This document shows, piece after piece, positions 7,035 through 42,840 of a stretch of 64,000 nt of DNA. The position numbers and the translations under genes are program-made. The notes below the pieces were generated by a model, which saw nothing but the letters and a program-made list of their open reading frames with translations, made no database searches and was not told where the DNA came from. Every line of letters begins with the position of its first letter. Positions within the stretch are counted from its first letter, which is position 1. This DNA is from Alphaproteobacteria bacterium (GTDB taxonomy: Bacteria; Pseudomonadota; Alphaproteobacteria; CAAHEQ01; UBA3637), in NCBI GenBank assembly GCA_017533325.1, contig JAFXIF010000061.1, positions 28-64,027 of the forward strand, read 5' to 3'.

Positions 7035-9371
7035 TCAGTTTTTAAAAAAACTTTTAAGCCGTGTCGAATTTTTTGAAAGTTCAGTAAATGTTTTCCCCTC
7101 TGCATCTTTTAAATTTAAATCCACATTATTTTCAATCATCACCTCTACAAAAGGATGATATCCGACTAAAACCGCTAAATGAAGCAAAGGAAGTTTTGTT
7201 TTTTCATCTATTGAATTAACATCTGCTCCCGCTTTTAAAAGGATTTTAAAATATTTCATATCCTGTTGCAATAATGCCTGCCTCAACTCTAAATATCCAA
7301 GATTTTTTATTCTGTTTTGCCGGCAAAAACAGTTATTTTTCATCAAAAGGACAACAGCTTCTCGATATGAAAATGTTAAAGCCCATTCAATTGGTGTTTT
7401 TTGATACAAGTAAATTTCATTTAAATGCGCTTTTTTTTCAATTGCTTTTTCAACATAAGGAAGATTATTCGTTAAAATACCTTGAAACAACAAACATTCA
7501 TAAATCTTCCTTTGGCTTTCATAACGCGCAAAAAAGTTTTTATAGTTTTGCGATTTTTTTTGAATTAAGGAAGCACAACTTTGCCCCTCTTCATTCAAAA
7601 GGTAAGGATCAGCCCCATTTGCAAGTAAAAACTTAAAAGCTCCAAAATTATCTTTTTGAATCGCTAAATGAAGAGGTGTCTGTTTATTTTCATCCATCTC
7701 ATTTAAATCTTGGTTTTTACAATCCAAAAATTCAAAAACATGATCTTTTGGGCTTAAAACCGCAAAATGAAAAATCGTTTTTCCTTCAACATCCTTTTCA
7801 CTCAAGGAAGCATTCTTTCCTAAAAGTAATTTTATAATTTTTTTATTGCCGATTTCAAACGCTTTCATTAATGGGGTTTGTTTTTTATAATCTGATTTTT
7901 CTATATCCGGATTCAATGCAAGAATAGATTTAACCAAATTCTCGTTTTCATTACAAACCGCATGAAAAAGAAGTGTTCTTCCTTTACAATCAATGGCGTT
8001 TATATCTATTTTATTTATACCTTTGGTCAGCTTATTTACTTTACCATCCGTTAAGTTCGTTAACAGTCTTGTTAATTCTTTTTGTTTTTCACTCTTCTCT
8101 AATTTCTTTGTCAAATTTAAATCTTTTAACAAAAGATGATATAAAAGAAATAAATTTTGTTCCACAACATCAAGTTGCCGGTGAATCATTTTATTCATTT
8201 CACTGAGAGCTACTTTTAACATTAAGCCGGAAACATAAGGCATAAAAATAATAAAAGCATTCTTTAAAATAAATTTCATAAGCTTTTTTAAATAGGCTTT
8301 TTCGAAAGCTAATCTCCTATTTAAGGCATATAAAAATTTATCCGGCTCCACCGGTATTTTTTCCAACGGCATATCCGAAACAAAAAGATGTTTTTTTAAA
8401 AGAAACTTCAAATATGCTGCATAAGCCGTTTCTAATTTGAATGGTAGCGAAAATTCTGTTTTAAGCTTTCTCCAATCAGTGTGAATATTCATAATATCTT
8501 GCAACTGAACGGATAAAGAAAATTTTTGCCACAAATCTCCCCATTTTGATTTTTCGCTTTCAGAAACAGCATTGAATAAATCAGCTTCTGAAATCTGAAT
8601 ATTTTTATTTAGCCCTTCTTGTTCTTTCTTTAAAATCTTATCTTGAACAAATAACACCTCTTCAAATAAGTCTTTAAAAAACTTTTGAAAAACAGATTGG
8701 CTATTTTGCGCTGTATCCCAATCTAAATTCTCATTTTGCTTAAATAAATCACATTTTTTTTGAACTATGTCTAAAAAAATCTGACACATATCCTCTAAGT
8801 TCAAAGGTTTTAAGTCTTCAAAAGATTTTCCCTCGTTATAAAAAAATTGTTGTTCGCTCATATTCAAGCTTAAAGGATACAAATCAAAATCTTCTTTAAA
8901 TTCAACAAGATGCGGTTGATTTTCAACTTGCCATTCAAAACTTGTTTCATCAGAGTCTAAACAAACATTTTTGGAATTTTTTTTCTTTTTTTCAAGAATA
9001 TTTTCCCTCATTCTTAAACAAGCTTCTAAAAAAACCGGTCTAAGCGGTGAATTTGTTTTTTTTAAAATATTGACGATAAAAAGATCATCATCAAATTGCT
9101 TAAACGATAATAAAAGCTCATTATATTCCCTAATCAAATTTAATTTGTCATATAATGAATATTTCGATTTTTCTTCAAACGAAAAAAAAAGCTCAACTTC
9201 TTTTTGCCAAATGGCTAAAATGATTTTTTCAAAAGTTTTAAACTGCACTTCAAAATCAGAAAGATTTTTTAAATCCTGCAACCACTTTTTTTGTTCTTTT
9301 AACACCGGTAAAGTTTTTTGCATTTGAGTAGCGTTTGTATTGAAAATTAAATCAGATGAGTCTTGAAACAT
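7035..9371 (-). CDS. Ankyrin-repeat protein with a large N-terminal domain of unknown function (effector-like)
   Basis: The C-terminal ~320 aa contain about 7 ANK-like repeats, e.g. GRTLLFHAVCNENENLVKSILALNPDIEKSD, KQTPLHLAIQKDNFGAFKFLLANGADPY and KLPLLHLAVLVGYHPFVEVMIENNVDLNLKD. The start is set at Met12 (ATG 9371), which has a GGAG RBS 8 nt upstream, because the predicted -10 element overlaps the ORF-track ATG at 9404. Confidence 0.85.
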   Translation of the reverse strand: MFQDSSDLIFNTNATQMQKTLPVLKEQKKWLQDLKNLSDFEVQFKTFEKIILAIWQKEVELFFSFEEKSKYSLYDKLNLIREYNELLLSFKQFDDDLFIVNILKKTNSPLRPVFLEACLRMRENILEKKKKNSKNVCLDSDETSFEWQVENQPHLVEFKEDFDLYPLSLNMSEQQFFYNEGKSFEDLKPLNLEDMCQIFLDIVQKKCDLFKQNENLDWDTAQNSQSVFQKFFKDLFEEVLFVQDKILKKEQEGLNKNIQISEADLFNAVSESEKSKWGDLWQKFSLSVQLQDIMNIHTDWRKLKTEFSLPFKLETAYAAYLKFLLKKHLFVSDMPLEKIPVEPDKFLYALNRRLAFEKAYLKKLMKFILKNAFIIFMPYVSGLMLKVALSEMNKMIHRQLDVVEQNLFLLYHLLLKDLNLTKKLEKSEKQKELTRLLTNLTDGKVNKLTKGINKIDINAIDCKGRTLLFHAVCNENENLVKSILALNPDIEKSDYKKQTPLMKAFEIGNKKIIKLLLGKNASLSEKDVEGKTIFHFAVLSPKDHVFEFLDCKNQDLNEMDENKQTPLHLAIQKDNFGAFKFLLANGADPYLLNEEGQSCASLIQKKSQNYKNFFARYESQRKIYECLLFQGILTNNLPYVEKAIEKKAHLNEIYLYQKTPIEWALTFSYREAVVLLMKNNCFCRQNRIKNLGYLELRQALLQQDMKYFKILLKAGADVNSIDEKTKLPLLHLAVLVGYHPFVEVMIENNVDLNLKDAEGKTFTELSKNSTRLKSFFKN

Positions 9372-9395
9372 AAAATAAACTCCAAAAAACAACTT

Positions 9396-9424
9396 ATGAT
9401 ACATAAAATTTTATGATTTGTCAA
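9396..9424 (-). promoter_or_regulatory. Putative sigma70-type promoter (TTGACA-17 nt-TATCAT) of the ankyrin gene
   Basis: On the minus strand, TTGACA is at 9424-9419 and TATCAT at 9401-9396, with a 17-nt spacer. Confidence 0.4.
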
Positions 9425-18629: not shown

Positions 18630-19697
18630 ATGAAAAAAGCAACAAACAAGATGAAAACAAAAGAAAAAACTTTATCCGGAAATAAACTTTCTTTGACCCG
18701 TGGATCTGCACTTATGGAACGCGAGGCCAGAAAAGAAAGAACGCCTCAAAAAAAAAGCAAAGCCGTTAAAGCCTTTATTGATCAAAACAAACAAGGGTTA
18801 ACAAGGGTTTTTGTTGCCGGCGGGTCCAGATCCGGCAAAAATGACATTTATGAAGAAGAAGCTTTTGCTCTTGGAAGACAAATCGGAAAGAAAAAATATC
18901 GCCTTGATTTTGGACTTTCTTCTAAAGGGATTATGGGGGCTGTTGCCAGAGGTGTTTTAACAGGGTGGAGCGAAACAAATCAAAATCAATCAAAAGATAA
19001 GGTGATTCATGCCGTTACAACAAAGGAATATTTAGCCCTTTATCAAAGCGATAGTATTATAGATGAGGTTTCAGATATCATCGTTTCTCATACATTGGAA
19101 GAAAGAAAACAGCAACTTCTTGGGGCGGATTTTGTTATTTTTGCTCCGGGAGGCGTCGGCACGTTAGACGAACTTGCTTATGATTGCGTTGCCATGCAAG
19201 ACGGTTTTTTAAATTTTAAACCGTTCATTCTTTTTAATGTTCAAGGTTTTTTCTATCACTTACTTGAATATTTAAAAGAAATTCAAAAAGAAGGTTTTGC
19301 CAGCAATATTCCTTTTATTGTTGTTGATGATAGTTTTGAAGCATTGGTTGCTTTTGATATGATTGATCTTTTTTATAAAAAAGAAATCAAAAAAAATCCG
19401 ACTCACGCCAAATCCATTTTAAACAGATTGGTTTATTTGCTTCCTTACGTCATTCATCAACGCCTTTTAGATTCAAAAAAATCAACTGAGGATGTGTTAA
19501 ATAACATTGAAACCGTTATCAATCAAACCAATTCAAAAAAACAACACATACTTGAAGAAGAAATTGAAAAAGCCTATTTAAGCAAAGAAATTGAGCGCCT
19601 TTATGAACGCTTGGCAAAAGCAGGAAAAGACACGGCAAACGTCAGCGACAAGCTTCAAAAATTAAAGAACAGATATAAATCAAAGAATATTTTATAA
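18630..19697 (+). CDS. LOG family (TIGR00730-type Rossmann fold) protein with N- and C-terminal extensions
   Basis: 355 aa. The core (~aa 58-240) has VFVAGGSRSG...GIMGAVARG and the PGGxGTxxE motif (APGGVGTLDEL). It carries a ~55-aa Lys-rich N-terminal extension and a ~110-aa C-terminal helical/coiled extension. Confidence 0.7.
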   Translation: MKKATNKMKTKEKTLSGNKLSLTRGSALMEREARKERTPQKKSKAVKAFIDQNKQGLTRVFVAGGSRSGKNDIYEEEAFALGRQIGKKKYRLDFGLSSKGIMGAVARGVLTGWSETNQNQSKDKVIHAVTTKEYLALYQSDSIIDEVSDIIVSHTLEERKQQLLGADFVIFAPGGVGTLDELAYDCVAMQDGFLNFKPFILFNVQGFFYHLLEYLKEIQKEGFASNIPFIVVDDSFEALVAFDMIDLFYKKEIKKNPTHAKSILNRLVYLLPYVIHQRLLDSKKSTEDVLNNIETVINQTNSKKQHILEEEIEKAYLSKEIERLYERLAKAGKDTANVSDKLQKLKNRYKSKNIL

Positions 19698-20651: not shown

Positions 20652-21785
20652 ATGACAATGGGAACAGTTCAATCAAAATGGCAACAAATTAACGGCAGTA
20701 ACATGCTTGTTTTGGTTCGTGAAACCGGGGAAACGGTTGCTCTTCCGATTGAACAAGTTTATCAAATTTTAAATCCGGTTGTAATCGATCAAGATGGGGC
20801 GCCAACTTTTTTAGTTGATGTAACAGATGCCATAACCCCTCAACAAAAACAAGCTTTGTATAACACTCCGACACCGCGCTTTGTGTCAAGTCCCTATCGC
20901 ATAACTTATGCCGAACTTGCTTCAATTTCACAAACGGGGAAACCGGTTATTGAGTCCCTTCAAAATCAATCAAACACGCAAAGCATTAATCTTGCCGGTG
21001 CTATGACGGGATTAGCCGGCGTGGCAAGTTTAGGTGCCAGAAGCACAAATTCCATCACAAGCGGAGTCAACAGCATTTCCAATGGGGTCGGAAATTTACA
21101 AAATATTGACAGTATATCCGATGTTTCTCGTGGCACAACTCAACTTTCCAATGGGCTTAATCGTTTTGCAAACTTAACGAACAATGGCAATGCCGCCGTT
21201 GATGCCACACAAGGAACGGATGATCGAAATTTCTTTTTGTCAGCCGGCAATTGGCTTGATAATTCTTTATTTGGATCTATTGCCGATCTTATGCCGATAG
21301 ATATGTTAAAAAAAGCTGTCAAAATGATCGGCGGATGTATTTCAGGTCTTTTCAAAACCCTTGGATATATCATTGAAGGGGAATGGGATAAAGCCGGATC
21401 TGTCGGGTTAAGTTGGTTAAAAGATGCAGCCGTTACCGGCGCCTTAACCTATGGAGCCTATTATCTCGGAAAAGAACTCAATTTATTTGGGAAAGAGGAT
21501 GAAGATGAAAACACCTCTTCAAATTCAGGAAGCAATTCTAATGATAACTCTAACGATAATTCTAATAACACCCCAACGGTTAATGTTTCCGTTTCAAAAG
21601 AAGATTCATTAGAATTGGTTCATAGGCCCAGCTCAAACAGCACTCCTGTTGCCGTTTTAGATCAAGCCGGAAAAATCATCACGACCGGACAAAGTCATTT
21701 ATCAGGCACCAGCACCATTTTAAATAATGGAAATTCCTCAACTGTGTTTGAATACACAATTAATCAAAAAGTGGATACAAAATAA
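20652..21785 (+). CDS. Hypothetical S/N/G-rich protein with a central hydrophobic region (orphan, effector-like)
   Basis: 377 aa in five parts: a globular N-terminal ~100 aa; a low-complexity S/N/G/T region; a hydrophobic/amphipathic block (IGGCISGLFKTLGYII...AAVTGALTYGAYYLG); an acidic stretch with SNSGSNSNDNSNDNSNN repeats; and an S/T-rich tail. No family recognised. Confidence 0.6.
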   Translation: MTMGTVQSKWQQINGSNMLVLVRETGETVALPIEQVYQILNPVVIDQDGAPTFLVDVTDAITPQQKQALYNTPTPRFVSSPYRITYAELASISQTGKPVIESLQNQSNTQSINLAGAMTGLAGVASLGARSTNSITSGVNSISNGVGNLQNIDSISDVSRGTTQLSNGLNRFANLTNNGNAAVDATQGTDDRNFFLSAGNWLDNSLFGSIADLMPIDMLKKAVKMIGGCISGLFKTLGYIIEGEWDKAGSVGLSWLKDAAVTGALTYGAYYLGKELNLFGKEDEDENTSSNSGSNSNDNSNDNSNNTPTVNVSVSKEDSLELVHRPSSNSTPVAVLDQAGKIITTGQSHLSGTSTILNNGNSSTVFEYTINQKVDTK

Positions 21786-21798
21786 TTTTTAAAAGAAT

Positions 21799-21832
21799 AA
21801 AAAAAAGCGACTTTAAAAAGTCGCTTTTTTTT
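21799..21832. terminator. Bidirectional rho-independent terminator between the convergent S/N-rich gene and frr
   Basis: Perfect inverted repeat aagcgacttt/aaagtcgctt flanked by an A-run and a T-run. Confidence 0.6.
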
Positions 21833-21843
21833 GTTTCTTAAAC

Positions 21844-22404
21844 TTAAATTTGCTTAATTTCGGCTTCTTTATTTTTTAAAGCATCATCTAAAGCTTTGAT
21901 ACCTTCATCCGTTAATTTTTGAATTTCGGTTTCATAACGCTTTTGTTCATCTTCCGTAATTGAATTATCATTTTTAAGTTTTTTAATTCCATCTAAAGCA
22001 TCACGGCGAAGATTACGAACGGAAACACGGGCTGTTTCCGTATATTTGCCGGCAATTTTAATTAATTCAATACGGCGTTCTTCTGACAACGGAGGGATTG
22101 GAATTCTGATCACAACACCATCATTCATCGGATTTAATCCAAGACCGGCTTCCACAATGGCTTTTTCAACTTTTTTAATCATTGATTTATCCCAAACCGA
22201 AACCGTTAACATTCTGGCATCAGAAACAGTAACATTTCCGACTTGATTTAAAGGCACAATAGCCCCATAAGATTCAACCATAATACCATCTAAAAGAGCG
22301 GTTGTTGCCCGACCGGTGCGAAGGCCAGAAAAATCTTTTTTAAGAGAGTCTTGAGTTTTTACCAAACGCTCTTGCATATCTTGTTTAATTTCTGAATATG
22401 ACAT
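21844..22404 (-). CDS. frr: Ribosome recycling factor
   Basis: 186 aa with the typical RRF sequence (DFSGLRTGRATTALLDGIMVESYG...VRNLRRDA). Confidence 0.95.
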   Translation of the reverse strand: MSYSEIKQDMQERLVKTQDSLKKDFSGLRTGRATTALLDGIMVESYGAIVPLNQVGNVTVSDARMLTVSVWDKSMIKKVEKAIVEAGLGLNPMNDGVVIRIPIPPLSEERRIELIKIAGKYTETARVSVRNLRRDALDGIKKLKNDNSITEDEQKRYETEIQKLTDEGIKALDDALKNKEAEIKQI

Positions 22405-22541: not shown

Positions 22542-23888
22542 ATGGGAAGATTAAGGATCAAAATCTTTATTGTTTTTATTTGTTGCATCACAGTTTTGTT
22601 TCAACAAAGAAACACTCAGCATTTGCACCTTTATTTTGATCCGGCAACAACACCGGCCTTAGTTCAAATGACCCATTTTATAAATTTACCGCCAAATGAT
22701 TTAAAAATCATCAGTTGGAATAGATTTCATAATCATATTAAAAACAAAAAACAATTCCCAAACACCGATTTTTTTATTACCGATAAGAATGATTTTAACA
22801 ATTCTTCTCTTGTTTTCCAAAAAATTGAAAAAATCCTTCAAACCCAACAAAATGTTCATATACATTTACACTTTAATTTATTGCATCCCGCCATTTATAA
22901 TTTTCTTTCAAGCCACCCGAAAACAAAAGATAAAATCAAATCTGTTCACGTGTATGAAGATGCCAGCGGCCATTTTTTAAGAGATGCGAACAAAGATGAT
23001 TTTTTAACTTCTTTACCTAAAAATTCAACGCTTTATCATTGGGGAAATCTCTCAAAAATTTGCTCTGACAATTCCTTTTCAAGATGCTCACAAATCAAAA
23101 AAATTAAAAAAAACATCTCGTTAAAAGAAATCAATTTTCAAAAATTAGCACACACATTCACCGAAAAGAAGCGAAAAAAACTATTTGATTTAACCGGATT
23201 TGATTATGAAAAAACAAAAAAACTTTTATCCGGAAAAAAAACATATTTTTATATTTTAGGGTATGACTGGCAAAAACCTGTTATCGGCGCCCAATTAGCA
23301 GCATTAAAATATCTTTGTCAACCCTCCTCAAAAACAGGCACTCCAAAAGAAGGGGAAACAGCAAGTTCAAGTCAGTCTTATTGGTTTTATAAAAATCATC
23401 CGAGCGAATTAAATATGCCAAGACACGTCATTCTTGATCATTTATGCCCCAATATAAAATCCATTGCAACACACCTTCCTTTTGAACTTTTAATCCTAAG
23501 TGATTTATCCCCACATAATGTTGCCGGTTTTTCATCAAGTCTTTTTTTCAATTTATCTTCCGAACAAATAGCCGTTTATCTTGAAAGAGCAAATGACCCT
23601 TATCGCAACATTCTTGAAAAAAACGCGCTTATCCATCCCAACAAAATATGGACTCAAAAAGAAATTGATAAACATTTAAAAGAATCCAATATATTTGAAT
23701 TTATCGAAGATGACAACAAATCAAGCTGGTTTTTAAAAATAAATGAAAACAAAATGCTAAACATTTTCAAAAATGAAGAAGTAAAAATCATTGAACAGAC
23801 AAAAAATGATTTTGTCATTCAAAAAAACAAAAAGGACATCCATACCTATCAATTTCAAAAAGATTATCAATGGCTTAAAAAACCTTAA
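22542..23888 (+). CDS. Membrane-anchored GT80-like glycosyltransferase (PmST1-type sialyltransferase homolog), copy 1
   Basis: The start is set at ATG 22542 (MGRLRIKIFIVFICCITVLF signal anchor). Motifs match those recalled for Pasteurella multocida PmST1 (PmST1 form in brackets): LYFDPATTPALVQM (LYLDPASLPALNQL), HIHLHFNLLH (LNIHLNIAH), VYEDASG (LYDDGS), YKNHP (FKGHP), LPFELL (ISFEVL), VAGFSSSLFFNL (VGGVASSLYFSL). Confidence 0.65.
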   Translation: MGRLRIKIFIVFICCITVLFQQRNTQHLHLYFDPATTPALVQMTHFINLPPNDLKIISWNRFHNHIKNKKQFPNTDFFITDKNDFNNSSLVFQKIEKILQTQQNVHIHLHFNLLHPAIYNFLSSHPKTKDKIKSVHVYEDASGHFLRDANKDDFLTSLPKNSTLYHWGNLSKICSDNSFSRCSQIKKIKKNISLKEINFQKLAHTFTEKKRKKLFDLTGFDYEKTKKLLSGKKTYFYILGYDWQKPVIGAQLAALKYLCQPSSKTGTPKEGETASSSQSYWFYKNHPSELNMPRHVILDHLCPNIKSIATHLPFELLILSDLSPHNVAGFSSSLFFNLSSEQIAVYLERANDPYRNILEKNALIHPNKIWTQKEIDKHLKESNIFEFIEDDNKSSWFLKINENKMLNIFKNEEVKIIEQTKNDFVIQKNKKDIHTYQFQKDYQWLKKP

Positions 23889-23940: not shown

Positions 23941-25929
23941 ATGTCTGATTTATTTAATGCTACACAACAAAAAAACGAATACTCTGCCAGAGATATTGAA
24001 GTTCTGGAAGGGTTGGAACCGGTTCGCAAACGTCCGGGGATGTATATCGGCGGTATTGATGAACGCGCCTATCATCACCTTGTTGCGGAAATTATTGATA
24101 ATGCTATGGATGAAGCCGTTGCAGGTTATGCCACAAATATTGAGGTGAATTTATCTGCTGACGGGTATGTCACCGTAAGAGATAACGGTCGCGGTATCCC
24201 CGTTGATCCGCATCCGAAATATCCGGATAAATCTGCCTTGGAAGTTATCACAACAACCTTGCACTCCGGCGGAAAATTCGGTGGAGGAGCTTATGGTGTT
24301 TCCGGCGGTTTACATGGGGTTGGTCTTTCAGCCGTTAACGCTTTATCTTCTCACATGGTCATTGAAGTTGCCAGAGAGAAAAAACTTTATCGTCAAGAAT
24401 ATAAGCAAGGCAAACCCATCACGGACCTTGTTTGTGTCGGGGCTGTCAGTAACAGACGAGGCACCAGCGTTTCATTTATTCCGGACACTGAAATCTTTGG
24501 GGAAACAACAAAATTTAAACCATCGACTTTGTTTAGAATGAGCCGAACAAAAGCATTTTTGTTCCGTGGCGTTGAAATTCGTTGGTCTTGTGATCCCAGT
24601 TTAATCACAAATGAAGACAAGACACCTTCTGAACAAATTTTAAAATTCCCTAACGGCGTTGCCGATTTCTTGGATTATTTAATTAAAGACAGATCGGTTG
24701 TGACGCCAAAACCTTTCACAGGTCGAATTGAATTACCCGATAATGAAGGGGCTGTTGAATGGGCAATTTGTTGGTTAGATGATTTTAAAGACGGATTTTC
24801 CTATTCATATTGTAATACAGTTGTGACCCCTTTAGGCGGAACGCATGAAACAGGTTTAAGAGCAGGTTTAACAAAGTCTTTACGTTCTTATGCTGAAATG
24901 TCCGGCAACAAAAAAGCAGCGGACATTACCGCTGACGATATTTTAAACACAGCAGGTGTCATGCTTTCTGTTTTCATTAAAGATCCGCAATTTCAAGGCC
25001 AAACAAAAGAAAAACTTGTCACTACAAGTGCAGCTCGTTTGGTTGAAAATGCAATTAAGGATCCTTTTGATCATTGGCTGAGCCGAGATATCAAATCATC
25101 TAATATTTTGCTTGATTATATCGTTGAAAAAGCAGAAGAAAGAAAAAGAAAGAAAAAAACGCTTGAAACAGCCAGAGCAAGCGCCACAAAAAAATTGCGT
25201 TTACCTGGAAAATTAGCTGATTGCTCACATGGAAAAACACTTGGAACCGAGCTCTTTTTGGTTGAAGGAGATTCTGCCGGCGGATCTGCTAAACAAGCAA
25301 GAAACAGAGAAACTCAAGCTATTTTGCCTTTAAGAGGTAAAATTTTAAATGTTATCAGCGCCTCTCAAGATAAAATTTTGGCAAATGAAGAAATTAAGGA
25401 CATGACTGAGGCTTTAGGCTGTGGCAGACGCGATAAATATAATGAAGATGCGCTTCGGTATGAAAAAATCATTATTATGACTGATGCAGACGTTGATGGC
25501 GCTCATATTGCTTCTTTATTAATGTCTTTCTTCTATCAAGAAATGCCAAAGCTTATTGAAAACGGCCATTTATTCTTAGCTCTTCCGCCTCTTTATCGAT
25601 TAACACAAGGCGGAAAATCCGTTTATGCTGCGGATGATGAAGAGAAAGAAAAAGTTTTGAAAACAGTGTTTAAAAATGCAAAAAATGTGGATATTTCAAG
25701 GTTTAAAGGGCTGGGAGAAATGCCCCCACAACAATTAAAAGAAACAACAATGGATCCGAAAAAACGAACATTATTAAAAGTTGTTGTGCCACATAAAGCA
25801 ACAGAAGAAGAGGCCGAAGAAGCAATATATACAAAAAATATTGTTACACGACTGATGGGGACAAAACCGGAATATCGTTTTCAATTTATTCAGGAACACG
25901 CCCGTTTTGTTGAAAATTTAGATATCTAA
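23941..25929 (+). CDS. parE: DNA topoisomerase IV subunit B
   Basis: 662 aa with a GHKL ATPase N-terminus (LEGLEPVRKRPGMYIGG, HLVAEIIDNAMDEA), a Toprim region (ELFLVEGDSAGGSAKQ, IMTDADVDGAHI) and a GLGEM motif. Its length, and the lack of the ~170-aa GyrB insertion, favour ParE over GyrB. Confidence 0.85.
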   Translation: MSDLFNATQQKNEYSARDIEVLEGLEPVRKRPGMYIGGIDERAYHHLVAEIIDNAMDEAVAGYATNIEVNLSADGYVTVRDNGRGIPVDPHPKYPDKSALEVITTTLHSGGKFGGGAYGVSGGLHGVGLSAVNALSSHMVIEVAREKKLYRQEYKQGKPITDLVCVGAVSNRRGTSVSFIPDTEIFGETTKFKPSTLFRMSRTKAFLFRGVEIRWSCDPSLITNEDKTPSEQILKFPNGVADFLDYLIKDRSVVTPKPFTGRIELPDNEGAVEWAICWLDDFKDGFSYSYCNTVVTPLGGTHETGLRAGLTKSLRSYAEMSGNKKAADITADDILNTAGVMLSVFIKDPQFQGQTKEKLVTTSAARLVENAIKDPFDHWLSRDIKSSNILLDYIVEKAEERKRKKKTLETARASATKKLRLPGKLADCSHGKTLGTELFLVEGDSAGGSAKQARNRETQAILPLRGKILNVISASQDKILANEEIKDMTEALGCGRRDKYNEDALRYEKIIIMTDADVDGAHIASLLMSFFYQEMPKLIENGHLFLALPPLYRLTQGGKSVYAADDEEKEKVLKTVFKNAKNVDISRFKGLGEMPPQQLKETTMDPKKRTLLKVVVPHKATEEEAEEAIYTKNIVTRLMGTKPEYRFQFIQEHARFVENLDI

Positions 25930-25941
25930 ATCGGAGATAAA

Positions 25942-26511
25942 ATGAATTTCATCATCACCCTTTCCGGACAGCTTGGCAGTGGCAAATCCACCGTTGGAAA
26001 ATTGCTGGCAAAAAAACTTGGATACACCTTTTATTCAACCGGTAATGCCCAGCGGAAAATTGCCGCCGAGCGAGGATTAACAACACTGGAACTTAACAAA
26101 CTTTCAATGACAGATTCAAGTATTGATGAACAGATTGATTCTGTTTTTAAAGAATTGGTGCTTCAAGACGAAAATTTTATTGTTGATTCCAGATTGGGAT
26201 TCTTTTTTATCCCCTCCTCCTTAAAAGTCAAATTAAATGTGGAAACAAAAGTTGCAGCAAGTCGCATTTTTAATGATCCGACTCGATCTGAAGAAAAAAA
26301 ATATGCTTCAATTAAAGAGGCCGAAACTGCCTTATTAAACAGACGGGCTTTAGAAGTTGAGCGATTTAAAAAATTATATCATGTTGATATCGATAACGAA
26401 GCTAACTTTGATCTTGTTATTGATACAACAGGTAAAACTCCAGATGAAATTGTTAATCTGATATTAGAAAAATTCAAAAAATTTCAAAAAAGACGCTTAA
26501 AAGAAATTTAA
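25942..26511 (+). CDS. Short cytidylate kinase-family protein (archaeal/type-2 style CMP kinase-like)
   Basis: 189 aa with a P-loop (ITLSGQLGSGKSTVGKLLAKKLGY) followed by STGNAQRKIAAERGLT, DSRLG and RFKKLYHVDIDNEANFDLVIDT. This pattern matches the short cytidylate kinase family found in archaea rather than the ~220-aa bacterial Cmk. The start is 12 nt after the parE stop. Confidence 0.65.
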   Translation: MNFIITLSGQLGSGKSTVGKLLAKKLGYTFYSTGNAQRKIAAERGLTTLELNKLSMTDSSIDEQIDSVFKELVLQDENFIVDSRLGFFFIPSSLKVKLNVETKVAASRIFNDPTRSEEKKYASIKEAETALLNRRALEVERFKKLYHVDIDNEANFDLVIDTTGKTPDEIVNLILEKFKKFQKRRLKEI

Positions 26512-26526
26512 AAAAAGAGGCATAAA

Positions 26527-27812
26527 ATGAAAACGATATTAAAATTAAGTGTTGTTTTTATTCTTTTATTTTGTGCTTACTTTACCTATACACCACCACC
26601 AAAAATTCATGTTTATTATGATCCGGCAACCTCGCCTGCTTTATTGCAAATGGTTGATTTTATTAATCAGGACGAGCAAGACATAAAATTCATTTTTTGG
26701 AAGAGATTTGATCAATATATTAAAAATAAAGAGAAATATCAAATACTTATTTTATAAATAACTGGGATCTTTTTTTTAAAAAACTTCAAGAAGTCTCTAA
26801 AGCAAATCCAAAATCAAAAATCATTTTACATCACAATCTCCATCATGATTATTTTTTCAATCATTTTATTGAGGTATTCCCAAAAAATAAAATTTTAGAA
26901 TCCCACGCTTATGAAGATGCTTCAAATTATATGTGGTGGTCCCCAAAAAAAGACTATATTTTCTTTAACTATCCTAAAATAAAACATAAATTGCACATGT
27001 GGGGCGATATAAAAAAACTTTGCTCAACAAAAGATGCGCACCCTCAATGTGAAAGAATCAAAAAATTAGATGATCTTATAAAAATTATACCCGTTGACTT
27101 TTATGCTCTCAAAAATAAACTCGCCCCTGATGATTTGGAAAAAATCGCAGTTCTTGCCGGCGTTGATTTAAAAAAATATCAAAAACTTCTAAAAGGGAAA
27201 AAAACAGGGATTTATTTACTCGGATTTATTGCCGGAACAAATTTAGAAAGTTTTCAACTGGTGGCATTAAAAGACCTTTGCAAAGCCTATAAGGACACCA
27301 CCTGGTTTTATAAACCACATCCCACTCATTTAAAAACACCAACTCATAAAGTTTTAACGCATCTATGTCCCAATATTAAACCTTTAAATCATCAGATTCC
27401 TTTCGAATTTTTGATTTTATCAGGTTTAGCGCCACAATATGTTGCCGGAATCGGCTCTTCAACTTTTGCAAATTTAAACCCTGAAAATATCCTTTTTTAT
27501 ATTCAACGAGGATATGTTGATTCTTATACGAACACGTTAAAAAAGGCAAAAATTCTCCCTGAAAAAGGAAAAGTTATTACACCTGAACAATCAATAAAAA
27601 AAATAATGAAACTTAATATGTTTTTTATCGGTAACGCTGGATGGTTTATCAAAATTGATAATGAATATTGCAAGATGACGCAAAATGAGTGTTACACAAT
27701 CGTTGAGGACACTCCCACAACAAAAACATTCAAAAACAAGAAAAATCAATTAGTTAAAACAAAACATATTGAGTCTTATAAGTGGTCAAAATTTGAACTC
27801 ATCAACGAATAA
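26527..27812 (+). pseudogene. GT80-like glycosyltransferase, copy 2, interrupted by a single frameshift near 26740-26745
   Basis: ORF 26527-26757 (signal anchor plus VYYDPATSPALLQMVDF) is in a different frame from the open frame 26730-27812 (NWDLFF..ILHHNLHH..AYEDAS..YKPHP..IPFEFL..VAGIGSSTFANL). Joined at tat-caa-a/at-act, the two pieces align with copy 1 across its whole length. Confidence 0.65.
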
Positions 27813-28428
27813 AGTTCGTAAACTCTCTTTTTTCATTTTGCGGCGGATAGATATGATTTTCTTTCCCAAGTTGAATAAGATTTAAAAAATAACTCATATT
27901 TTTTGCCAAATGATGAAGTGTTTGAATTCCTTCTTTATCGTTTTGAACATCTTGCGGTTGTGAGCCATGAACCATATTCCAATAACTTGAAGAAATAACC
28001 GGCATTTGATTTATCAAAAAATATTTTTGAATCACATCCAAACTTGCCGAAGTCCCTGCTCTTCTTGCCGAAACAAGAGCTGCTGCCGGTTTATGTGCAA
28101 AATATTTCCCGCCGGCATAAAAGAGTCTGTCCATCACGCTGAGCAATCTTCCGGATGGATGAGCATAATAAACGGGAGATGCAAAAACAAAGCCATCCGC
28201 TTCTTTTGCTTTTTCAATAATTTCATTAACGATATCTTCATATATACATTTACCATTTAATGCTGACCGACATAACCCGCATCCGGTGCAATCATGATAT
28301 TCTTTCGAACCTAACTGAATAATTTCTGTTTCAATTTTTTCTTGATTTAAAATCATCGCAACTTCGCTCAACGCAGTAAATGTGCACCCTTTTAAATTTG
28401 ATGATCCGTTTATCAATAAAACTTTCAT
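27802..28428 (-). CDS. Iron-sulfur flavoprotein-like NADPH-dependent FMN reductase family protein
   Basis: 208 aa with a flavodoxin-like fold start (MKVLLINGSSNLKG) and a compact Cys motif CTGCGLCRSALNGKC (C-x2-C-x2-C-x7-C), at the same position as the 4Fe-4S motif of Methanosarcina ISF as I recall it. The 3' end overlaps the 3' end of GT80-like copy 2 by 11 nt. Confidence 0.65.
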   Translation of the reverse strand: MKVLLINGSSNLKGCTFTALSEVAMILNQEKIETEIIQLGSKEYHDCTGCGLCRSALNGKCIYEDIVNEIIEKAKEADGFVFASPVYYAHPSGRLLSVMDRLFYAGGKYFAHKPAAALVSARRAGTSASLDVIQKYFLINQMPVISSSYWNMVHGSQPQDVQNDKEGIQTLHHLAKNMSYFLNLIQLGKENHIYPPQNEKREFTNFIR

Positions 28429-40029: not shown

Positions 40030-42840
40030 CTAATTCATCTCTTGCAACATTTTAACCAATCTGTTTAAGCCGACACTGTTTGATCCTTTTACCAAAACAA
40101 TATCATTTTCATTTATCTCAGAATAAATCCCCCTCATTAACTCTTCAACGGTTTCAAAATAACCGCCTTGAATATGACTAGGCAATAATTCATGTAAATG
40201 TTTCATAAGTGTTCCTATGGTATATACCCGATCAATTTGATTTTCAAGAATATTTTTTAATAAATCTTTATGTAATTGAACGCCATTTTCTCCCAACTCC
40301 AGCATTTGCCCTAAAATCGCTACTTTTCTTCCCCCTGTTTGCTTTGATAAAACAGATAAAGACGCTTTCATTGAAGAAGGATTGGCATTATAACAATCAT
40401 CTATTAATGTTATTTTTTTATTTCCTTTTAATACAAGCTGTTTCATCAACCCTCGGCCTTGAATGGGTTTTGTTGTTTGAATAACATCTAAAACATTTTC
40501 AAAATCAAGACCTAAAGCTTCAATTCCGGCTAAAACAGCCAATGAATTCATGGCAAAATGCTGTCCCAAAAAATTAATTTGATAAGCATATTCTTGGTCT
40601 TTTCTTTTAAATTTAATAAAACACTTATCCGAGATATCACATGAAATTAACTGAAAAGAAGCCTCTTGATTTTGCCCGAAAGAAACTATTTTTAATCCGT
40701 TTTCAAGCGCTTTTTTTTGCATAACAGGGAAAAATGAAGAGTCATGATTTAAAATTGCAACACTTGATTTTTTTTGTCCCAGAAAAATTTCGGATTTTGC
40801 CAAGGCAATCTCTTCTTCAGAGTTAAAAAATTCCCTGTGAGCCGATCCGATCATGGTAATAATACTGACATCCGGTTGCACAAGTTTCGTTAATTTTGAA
40901 ATTTCGCCTTTATGGTTCATCCCTAATTCAATCACCGCATATTTTGTTTCCGGATGCATAGAAGCTAACGTAAGAGGAACCCCGATTTCGTTATTAAAAT
41001 TTCCCTTCGTTGCATGTGTTTTTCCATAAACTTCTAAACAAGTTTTTAACATTTCTTTTGTTGTTGTTTTTCCGGAACTTCCCGTCACACCAATAAAAAG
41101 TGCCGAACTCTTCTTTCTTCGATATAGCGCTAATTTTTCAAGAGCTTCCATCACGTTTGGAACAATAATTTGACGGTTCTTTTGAACCCCTTGAACTTCT
41201 TTTTCAACCAAACAAGCACCGGCGCCTTTTTCAACAGCTGTTTTAACAAATTTATGTCCATCAACCTTTTCCCCTTTAAGGGCAAAAAATAAGTCACCGG
41301 GTTCAAGTGTTCTTGTATCGATTGAAACGCCTGAAACACGAATACTTTCATCCACAAAAACACCTAATGCTTCTTCTAAAGACTGCTTATCCCAAATCAA
41401 ATGATTGAGTGTGTTTATTGCCGCCAACGCTTCTTTTTTATCAGAGAACGGATAACAAATTCCATTCACGAGCTGCCCTGTTTCATGTCCTTTTCCGCAT
41501 AACACCAATATATCATTTTCTTTTAAAGAGCCAATAGATTGATAAATAGCTTCTTTTCTGTTAGCGATGACTTTTGCTTTAGGACAAGCTTTAAAAATCA
41601 TCTCTCGAATTAAAGAAGGCTCTTCAAACCTTGGATTATCATCTGTGATAAAAACTTTATCTGCTTCTTTTTGAGCAATTTCACCCATTAAAGCTCTTTT
41701 TCCTGTATCCCTGTTTCCGCCACAACCGATTAAAGCCACTAATGATCCTTTTGTATGCGGTCTTAAAGATGCAAGAACATTATGAAGCGCATCCGGCGTA
41801 TGCGCATAATCAACAAAGATATGAGCGCCGTTTTGACTTGCAACGCATTCCAATCTGCCCTCCGGCGCTTTTAAGTTTGGCAAATAATCAATCAAATCAT
41901 TCATTGGAATACCCAATTTTGAAACCAATCCCATAGCGCAAAGAATATTATGAACTTGAAATGAGCCAAAAATATTTAAATGAATCTCTTTTGTTATTCC
42001 TTGATAAGTTAAAGATAAAAGTTGCCCGTTCGGTAAAGGAGATAATTTATTAATTTTCAAATCATGACCTTTAACCCCATATGAAAAAATCGGAATATTT
42101 CTTTCTTTTAAAATTAAGCTCAATTCATTAAAACTCTCATCATCTGTGTTTAAAACTCCAACACCCTCTTGTTTTAAAAGCTTTTGAAACAAGATTTTTT
42201 TAGCGTCAAAATAAGCTTGCATAGATCCATGATAATCCAAGTGATCACGTGTTAAATTTGTGAACCCCGCTGATTCAAATTCAAAAGAAAAAAGTCTGTT
42301 TTGAACAAGCCCATGACTGGAAGCTTCCAAAACAACATATTCAACGTCTTTTTGTTCCAGTTCATATAATGTTTTTGCAAGAGATATGCTGTCCGGCGTT
42401 GTCATTTTCCCTGTTGTTAAAACATCATCAACATAGACACCCAATGTGCCAATCGAAGCTGTTTTATGGTGAAAAGCATTTAACAGTTGATAGACATAAT
42501 AAGCCGTTGATGTTTTTCCGTTTGTGCCGGTCACGGCAATTGTTTTTATTTTGGAACAAGGATACAAAACTGATGCAATTTTAGCTATATCCTCGCTTAA
42601 ATTTTTGCTTTTAATAACAGGTAAATGTGTTTTAATTTCTCTATCAGTCAAAACAATAGCAGCCCCGTTTTCAATTGCTTCACTTAAAAAATCAAGTCCG
42701 TCTGCCTTTTCACCTTTAACCGGAACAAAAATGTCCCCCTTATTTATTTCTTTAGAAGAAACACTTATTCCCTCTACTTGAATATCAGTGCAATCATTAC
42801 ATTCGAGATTAACCTTTTTTAATAACTCAACTAATAACAT
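40030..42840 (-). CDS. murE/murF: Fused MurE-MurF (UDP-MurNAc-tripeptide synthetase + UDP-MurNAc-pentapeptide synthetase) in one ORF
   Basis: A single 936-aa ORF. The N-terminal half has MurE motifs (AVTGTNGKTSTAYY, DYAHTPDAL, TDDNPRFEEP). The C-terminal half has MurF motifs (SIDTRTLEPGDLFFALKGEKVDGHKF, GVTGSSGKTTTKEML, DDCYNANP). There is no stop, and no ATG or SD, at the junction near aa 480. Confidence 0.9.
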   Translation of the reverse strand: MLLVELLKKVNLECNDCTDIQVEGISVSSKEINKGDIFVPVKGEKADGLDFLSEAIENGAAIVLTDREIKTHLPVIKSKNLSEDIAKIASVLYPCSKIKTIAVTGTNGKTSTAYYVYQLLNAFHHKTASIGTLGVYVDDVLTTGKMTTPDSISLAKTLYELEQKDVEYVVLEASSHGLVQNRLFSFEFESAGFTNLTRDHLDYHGSMQAYFDAKKILFQKLLKQEGVGVLNTDDESFNELSLILKERNIPIFSYGVKGHDLKINKLSPLPNGQLLSLTYQGITKEIHLNIFGSFQVHNILCAMGLVSKLGIPMNDLIDYLPNLKAPEGRLECVASQNGAHIFVDYAHTPDALHNVLASLRPHTKGSLVALIGCGGNRDTGKRALMGEIAQKEADKVFITDDNPRFEEPSLIREMIFKACPKAKVIANRKEAIYQSIGSLKENDILVLCGKGHETGQLVNGICYPFSDKKEALAAINTLNHLIWDKQSLEEALGVFVDESIRVSGVSIDTRTLEPGDLFFALKGEKVDGHKFVKTAVEKGAGACLVEKEVQGVQKNRQIIVPNVMEALEKLALYRRKKSSALFIGVTGSSGKTTTKEMLKTCLEVYGKTHATKGNFNNEIGVPLTLASMHPETKYAVIELGMNHKGEISKLTKLVQPDVSIITMIGSAHREFFNSEEEIALAKSEIFLGQKKSSVAILNHDSSFFPVMQKKALENGLKIVSFGQNQEASFQLISCDISDKCFIKFKRKDQEYAYQINFLGQHFAMNSLAVLAGIEALGLDFENVLDVIQTTKPIQGRGLMKQLVLKGNKKITLIDDCYNANPSSMKASLSVLSKQTGGRKVAILGQMLELGENGVQLHKDLLKNILENQIDRVYTIGTLMKHLHELLPSHIQGGYFETVEELMRGIYSEINENDIVLVKGSNSVGLNRLVKMLQEMN

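Follow-up and report, generated by a model that had tools for sequence, protein, structure and literature searches.

Organization of the locus

Why does a short kinase gene of archaeal type lie directly behind parE, the gene for topoisomerase IV subunit B, and between two genes that resemble GT80 sialyltransferases? The locus belongs to a stretch of DNA of 64,000 nucleotides, which we analyzed as a whole and refer to as the window. A first reading of the window, made from the sequence alone, had proposed that the kinase might serve its GT80-like neighbors and had considered parE the odd member of the gene string. Comparison with related loci leads us to a different answer: the kinase is probably the distal gene of an ancient parE–kinase pair and likely a housekeeping (d)CMP kinase, next to which the GT80 genes were added later.

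The four genes between positions 22542 and 27812 are all encoded on the plus strand and are separated by gaps of 52, 12 and 15 nt; the ORF listing and direct reading agree on this with the first description. The string begins with GT80-like copy 1 (22542-23888), an intact gene with a match to PF11477, whose 448-residue product has an N-terminal hydrophobic anchor. It is followed by parE (23941-25929), which scores 793.1 bits against TIGR01055 (cutoff 723.35), and by the gene for a P-loop NMP kinase of 189 residues (25942-26511), which matches TIGR02173 and PF13189 and is a predicted (d)CMP kinase. The 12 nt between parE and the kinase (25930-25941), which read atcGGAGataaa, contain a GGAG Shine-Dalgarno sequence and are too short for a promoter; so short a spacer suggests that translation of the kinase is coupled to that of parE. 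The last gene of the string, GT80-like copy 2 (26527-27812), is disrupted. It had been listed as one gene, and here the first description has to be corrected, as a 1-nt deletion at position 26740 leaves the two ORFs 26527-26757 and 26931-27812.

On its left side the string is bounded by frr, the divergent gene for ribosome recycling factor (21844-22404, minus strand). The identical gene of locus L081 has a recorded match to PF01765 (RRF), the counterpart in locus L001 is 97% identical, and a terminator-like hairpin lies beside the gene at 21800-21831. The right boundary is formed by a convergent FMN reductase-like gene (27802-28428, minus strand; PF03358, 109 bits), which shares 11 nt (27802-27812) with the 3' end of copy 2. 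The overlap, which is without a terminator-like hairpin, also occurs in L003, L006 and L081-L086.

In agreement with the first description, a pattern scan detected no terminator-like sites between the four genes; the hairpins that it found in the string lie inside parE only, and their number does not exceed the expectation from shuffled sequence. The possibility that parE or the kinase has a promoter of its own within the string was considered and rejected, as none of the 52-, 12- and 15-nt spacers contains a consensus-like site. Promoter-like hits in the region of the string were not more frequent than in shuffled sequences.

The window has a G+C content of about 35% and also contains a dcw cell-division cluster. 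One ORF of this cluster (40030-42840, minus strand) encodes 936 residues with two sets of Mur-ligase domains and appears to be a fused MurE-MurF. At 7035-9404, on the minus strand, the window encodes an ankyrin-repeat protein of 789 residues (PF12796 and related families); ankyrin repeats are typical of eukaryotic proteins and in a bacterium may hint at host interaction. Two further proteins, both encoded on the plus strand, are kept in the nearest relatives: a LOG/SLOG-like protein (18630-19697, PF03641), which carries long extensions at both termini and is 91% identical in L001, and a Ser/Asn-rich protein of 377 residues (20652-21785), which has no family match and is 68% identical in L001.

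Family and predicted activity of the kinase

The family models bear out the assignment of the kinase to the short archaeal-type cytidylate kinases. It matches TIGR02173 (cyt_kin_arch) end to end, with a score above the cutoff (105.2 bits, cutoff 102.1; residues 4-176, model positions 2-166 of 169), and PF13189 (Cytidylate_kin2) with 67.8 bits (cutoff 28; residues 4-163, profile positions 1-175 of 176). The margin in TIGR02173 is small, and the relatives in L008, L022, L037, L061 and L058 remain under the cutoff, with 87-101 bits. The protein had also been described as unlike bacterial Cmk, and this too is correct: a canonical bacterial Cmk matches its model over the full length, Cmk-specific insert of the NMP-binding domain included, and above the cutoff, whereas the kinase reaches 38 bits against TIGR00017 (cutoff 135.55), over the P-loop region alone (residues 1-41). 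The match to PF02224 is likewise confined to residues 5-41. Models of shikimate and adenylate kinases gave weak matches, mostly to the P-loop. Judged by these profile comparisons, membership of the kinase in the TIGR02173/COG1102/PF13189 family is solid.

The protein shows the characteristics of a short single-domain NMP kinase, namely a length of about 170-190 residues, a P-loop, an NMP-site motif, a D-S/G-R motif and LID arginines. All three motifs that had been pointed out in it (GQLGSGKSTV, DSRLG and YHVDIDNEANFDLVIDT) are present. In 16 homologues, down to 51% identity, the P-loop (G9-S16), Y31-S32-T33-G34..Q37-R38 and D82-S83-R84 are invariant, as are R108, R115, R134-R135, E138 and R141; the LID and C-terminal arginines are invariant throughout this set. 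A profile alignment to S. aureus Cmk in complex with CMP (2h92) places TGaaQR of the kinase onto TGAMYR and vDSR onto mDGR, the CMP-site elements of bacterial Cmk. Going by its family membership, the activity of the protein is most likely the ATP-dependent conversion of CMP and dCMP to CDP and dCDP.

The AlphaFold2 model of the kinase is confident (mean pLDDT 88.6). Sequence searches found no solved structure of a close relative; the best match in the PDB was 4cvn, a Fap7-like 'putative adenylate kinase' from Pyrococcus. Among solved folds, 3hdt and 3fdi were nearest to the model, followed by the E. cuniculi Cmk-CDP complex, shikimate kinases, Fap7 and bacterial Cmks. Complexes of Cmk with CDP and with CMP come directly after the first two, and Cmk 7l4a is among the nearest folds. 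A literature search for TIGR02173, PF13189 or bacterial Cmk of the archaeal type returned no experimental paper.

These comparisons also bear on a different assignment, by which the protein, still a member of the PF13189 P-loop kinases, would act on a substrate other than CMP (a different nucleotide, a nucleoside or some small metabolite) or would be an AK6/Fap7-like ATPase, and the genome would carry a canonical cmk elsewhere. The leading positions of 3hdt and 3fdi, the scores of shikimate kinases and Fap7, which nearly equal those of Cmk, and the Pyrococcus match 4cvn are compatible with such a function, and the bacterial members of the family score around or under the TIGR02173 cutoff. In addition, the family has relatives in Bacteroidota and Clostridia, where the gene is an extra paralogue. 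Since Bacteroidota and Clostridia carry a canonical cmk, the family is able to coexist with Cmk. However, STG..QR, DSR and RR..E..R, the residues that line up with the elements by which bacterial Cmk binds CMP, do not vary within the family, and the full-length match is to the equivalog model of (d)CMP kinases, while shikimate and adenylate kinase models find little beyond the P-loop. We therefore regard a substrate other than CMP as unlikely.

Origin of the kinase

The sequence-only reading had called the kinase archaeal in style. This is appropriate for the family model, but not for the origin of the gene. A database search yielded 576 relatives, the closest of which are 86-91% identical to the window kinase; the few for which a source is named are labelled as Alphaproteobacteria MAGs. 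The related loci appear to come from MAGs of animal guts (yak, roe deer, sheep rumen, rabbit). In a neighbor-joining tree of the window kinase and its relatives from species-representative genome loci, the gut-alphaproteobacterial kinases form one clade, and archaeal and Patescibacteria sequences form a separate one. Against TIGR02173, the bacterial relatives score 87-107 bits, straddling the cutoff, and the archaeal ones (DPANN) 116-134 bits. A recent transfer of the kinase from archaea was rejected, because the gut-alphaproteobacterial sequences have a clade of their own and their divergence tracks that of parE.

Three of the loci carry unexpected labels, as L021, L030 and L032 are recorded as MAGs of Lactobacillales, Bdellovibrionota and Comamonadaceae, respectively. 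The kinases of L021 and L030 nest within the gut-alphaproteobacterial clade, and the parE of L021 is 84% identical to that of the window; the kinase of L032 groups with Clostridia. For L021 and L030, if not for all three, an error of binning or labelling is probable.

Conservation of the parE–kinase pair

We mapped 80 species-representative loci with the proteins of the window and compared gene order in the first 45, which represent uncultured gut Alphaproteobacteria at species level and in which the identity of the kinase declines from 91% to 48%. Far from being an odd member of the string, parE lies immediately upstream of the kinase and on the same strand in 21 of these 45 loci, with a spacer of -2 to 38 nt in 20 of the 21. 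In another five it is found within one gene of the kinase or inverted nearby. It is missing from the flank of the kinase in 15, and four further loci are too short to tell. The pairing is therefore not obligatory, given the 15 loci without parE beside the kinase; adjacency or nearness of the two genes persists down to about 51% kinase identity. Outgroups show the ancestral arrangement, in which gltX on the minus strand is followed by parE and the kinase.

On the 3' side, the next gene is usually convergent to the kinase and encodes an SNF-family transporter, a HAD hydrolase or a conserved protein of unknown function, which indicates that the kinase closes the transcription unit. Pairwise identities of the kinase and of parE are correlated (Spearman 0.65), at a value not attained in any of 2000 Mantel permutations. 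This correlation fits a joint vertical descent of the two genes.

In five Micavibrio-like loci (L044, L054, L060, L061 and L067), the kinase homologue is located within an apparently longer ORF of 280-326 residues, as delimited by a crude ORF caller; it does not follow parE but lies divergently to an IHF/HU-like gene.

From gene order and divergence as they appear in these genomes, the conserved unit is parE–kinase, to all appearances an old housekeeping pair in many gut Alphaproteobacteria. The arrangement is conserved and has previously gone unremarked, although the kinase family itself is already annotated. Mutants of E. coli cmk reportedly replicate their DNA slowly (Fricke et al. 1995), and it would thus not be surprising to find a cmk gene paired with a gene for replication or segregation.

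Identity and distribution of the GT80-like genes

The two genes flanking the pair are GT80-like, as had been proposed. Copy 1 passes PF11477 (PM0188) with 51.5 bits (cutoff 25). The two fragments of copy 2 stay under this cutoff, with 15.4 and 23.7 bits, and the intact L081 allele of copy 2 shares 36% identity with copy 1 along the full length. Alignments of copy 1 to the Photobacterium sialyltransferase 2zwi and to the sialyltransferase entry 4v2u span almost the entire protein. The sequence motifs are kept in these alignments, YEDAS of copy 1 corresponding to YDDGS, KNHPS to KGHPS and GFSSSLFF to GMGSSVFF.

The family is rare. A word-indexed search of 5.8 billion proteins retrieved 16 members, and an exhaustive search among 1.84 billion representatives gave, for the whole superfamily, 133 clusters at E<=1e-3, of which only 15 reach E<=1e-30. 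Among the loci of related species, the kinase is accompanied by GT80-like genes in the species of the window (L081-L086) and its eight closest relatives (L001-L006, L087 and L088) alone; roughly 39 other loci of related species keep the kinase and lack them. Their complement varies: L001 and L002 have copy 1 and lack copy 2 (of which L002 shows only the 3' end, at the contig edge), L004 and L005 have copy 2 and lack copy 1, and L003 and L087 have both. In L006 and L088, copy 2 is accompanied by decayed fragments of copy 1. Members of the family are located at 22542-23888 in the window (copy 1), at 4657-5922 in L001 and at 8001-9389 in L087. The family seems to be restricted to a single small clade of gut Alphaproteobacteria, in which it is always found at the parE–kinase locus.

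Thirteen contigs encode a kinase identical to that of the window, and we looked at six of them (L081-L086). In L081 and L083, the DNA of copy 2 is 100% identical to that of the window except for one position, where they have CC and the window has the single C at 26740, and it encodes an intact protein of 428 residues; in the window, the downstream frame resumes at about 26742, after the deletion. The copy 2 genes of L082 and L084-L086 are 95.4% identical and are interrupted by different, independent single-base deletions or stops. Throughout the strains with an inactivated copy 2, the kinase protein is 100% identical. Either copy 2 is repeatedly decaying or some of these breaks are consensus or assembly errors. 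Phase variation was also considered for copy 2. The breaks (CC to C, single-base losses and stops) are at non-repetitive sites, and since no long homopolymer or repeat tract is present there, classical phase variation was rejected.

Evolutionary rates

The kinase and the GT80-like genes evolve at different rates. Between the window and L001, dN/dS is lowest for parE (0.024), followed by ftsZ (0.057), the kinase (0.062), the FMN reductase gene (0.104) and rsmB (0.133). The kinase is thus under purifying selection similar to that on ftsZ; its overall range of dN/dS is 0.06-0.16. For GT80 copy 1, the same comparison gives a dN of 0.46 with saturated dS, making it about 7 times faster at non-synonymous sites. 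Its protein is 46% identical to the counterpart in L001, where flanking genes are 90-97% identical. By these rates, the kinase behaves like a core gene and the GT80 genes like surface-modification genes with a fast turnover. The latter are, as far as their distribution in genomes tells, recent and unstable additions around the parE–kinase pair in one genus-level lineage.

The kinase and its GT80-like neighbors

The distribution and the rates together allow an assessment of the proposal that the kinase is present to serve the GT80 enzymes. According to it, the kinase would be a dedicated CMP-recycling partner, co-transcribed with the GT80-like sialyltransferases, which clears inhibitory CMP and regenerates CDP and CTP. 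The layout of the string is favorable to this proposal, its four genes being tightly spaced, co-oriented and without intervening terminators, and the CMP-binding motifs of GT80 are kept. Moreover, every member of the GT80-like family with visible context sits in the parE–kinase string, on one or both sides of the pair, and in L088 an 11-nt overlap joins copy 2 to the stop of the kinase; the GT80-like genes may therefore be selected for expression together with the kinase.

The sequence-only reading had suggested examining relatives for co-occurrence of the kinase with GT80-like genes, and this comparison goes against it. At least 35 related species keep the kinase without a GT80-like gene nearby, and in these it is conserved and linked to parE; the GT80-like genes are confined to a terminal subclade. 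Within that subclade, the kinase is retained irrespective of which copy is lost, in L001 and L002 without copy 2 and in L004 and L005 without copy 1, and its protein is unchanged where copy 2 has been inactivated, in the window as well as in several strains. The core-like evolution of the kinase, set against the roughly sevenfold faster GT80 genes, likewise speaks against a dedicated partnership. No gene for a CMP-sialic acid synthetase was seen in the window, and our literature search gave no described natural cluster of cmk and sialyltransferase genes, with a single paper naming both enzymes along with the term 'gene cluster'. In view of this, a kinase dedicated to the GT80-like enzymes is very improbable.

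A model for the history of the locus

The reading we prefer is that of an old parE–kinase pair with later GT80 neighbors. By its genomic setting, the kinase is the second and final gene of an old parE–kinase transcription unit that has been passed down vertically within a broad clade of uncultured Alphaproteobacteria from animal guts. Its role would lie in the housekeeping recycling of pyrimidine nucleotides and not in assisting a glycosyltransferase. In one genus-level subclade, two fast-evolving GT80-like paralogues would then have come to flank the pair; plausibly, a GT80-parE-kinase segment was duplicated in tandem, and the redundant copy of parE and kinase was lost afterwards. The paralogues would now be subject to repeated loss or inactivation. 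The CMP released by CMP-sugar transferases could be recycled by any Cmk, an incidental benefit that would not explain the position of the kinase.

As a housekeeping enzyme, the kinase may be either the sole Cmk of these bacteria, by non-orthologous displacement, or a conserved second paralogue. Searches with blastp and tblastn, using E. coli Cmk and RpsA as queries, found no canonical cmk or rpsA in 90 loci with flanks of about 16 kb; the only matches were of the P-loop to the kinase itself. Among the scanned ORFs of the 64-kb window there is no cmk, rpsA, aroA, neuA or kdsB.

A more far-reaching scenario can be built on this reading. The archaeal-type kinase would have replaced canonical Cmk as the only CMP/dCMP kinase across an order-level clade of gut Alphaproteobacteria, its translational coupling to ParE would tie the supply of dCDP and CDP to chromosome segregation, and one genus would have recruited rare, rapidly diversifying GT80 genes into this transcript, thereby co-expressing surface sialylation with CMP recycling. 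We consider this scenario doubtful as a whole. If the genome is without a canonical cmk, however, the locus would represent a clean non-orthologous displacement of a near-universal bacterial enzyme in a poorly known gut lineage.

For annotation, these results mean that the gene should be recorded as a cytidylate-kinase-family protein of the TIGR02173/PF13189 type and its neighborhood as a conserved parE–kinase pair, not as a sialylation module. The GT80-like genes, being rare, fast-evolving and repeatedly inactivated, may reveal more about host interaction than the kinase.

Comparison with known systems

The window kinase resembles the archaeal-type kinases of TIGR02173/COG1102 in its length of about 170-190 residues and in matching their model end to end; P-loop, NMP-site motifs and LID arginines are likewise common to both. 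It differs from them in belonging to a bacterial clade and in its place in a bacterial operon with parE, and its score of 105 bits against the model is lower than the 116-134 bits of archaeal relatives from DPANN.

To the canonical Cmk of bacteria (TIGR00017/PF02224), the resemblance lies in the P-loop NMP-kinase fold, the homologous CMP-site motifs and the predicted reaction. A parallel also exists in gene organization, as E. coli cmk, in the rpsA operon, is co-transcribed with an essential housekeeping gene, which is predicted for the window kinase as well. Yet the window kinase is about 30-40 residues shorter, and its neighbor is parE, whereas canonical cmk has aroA or rpsA as neighbors. 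The best structural matches, 3hdt from Clostridium symbiosum and 3fdi from Eubacterium ventriosum (TM 0.73-0.81), are only 14-22% identical in sequence. Their annotations, putative kinase for 3hdt and uncharacterised for 3fdi, carry no functional information.

The ORFs flanking the pair share with the GT80 sialyltransferases PM0188 and those of Photobacterium the YxDxS motif with its aspartate, the HP motif and the SS motif. Their identity to the solved GT80 enzymes is about 25-30%, and they differ from these by an additional C-terminal extension of about 90 residues.
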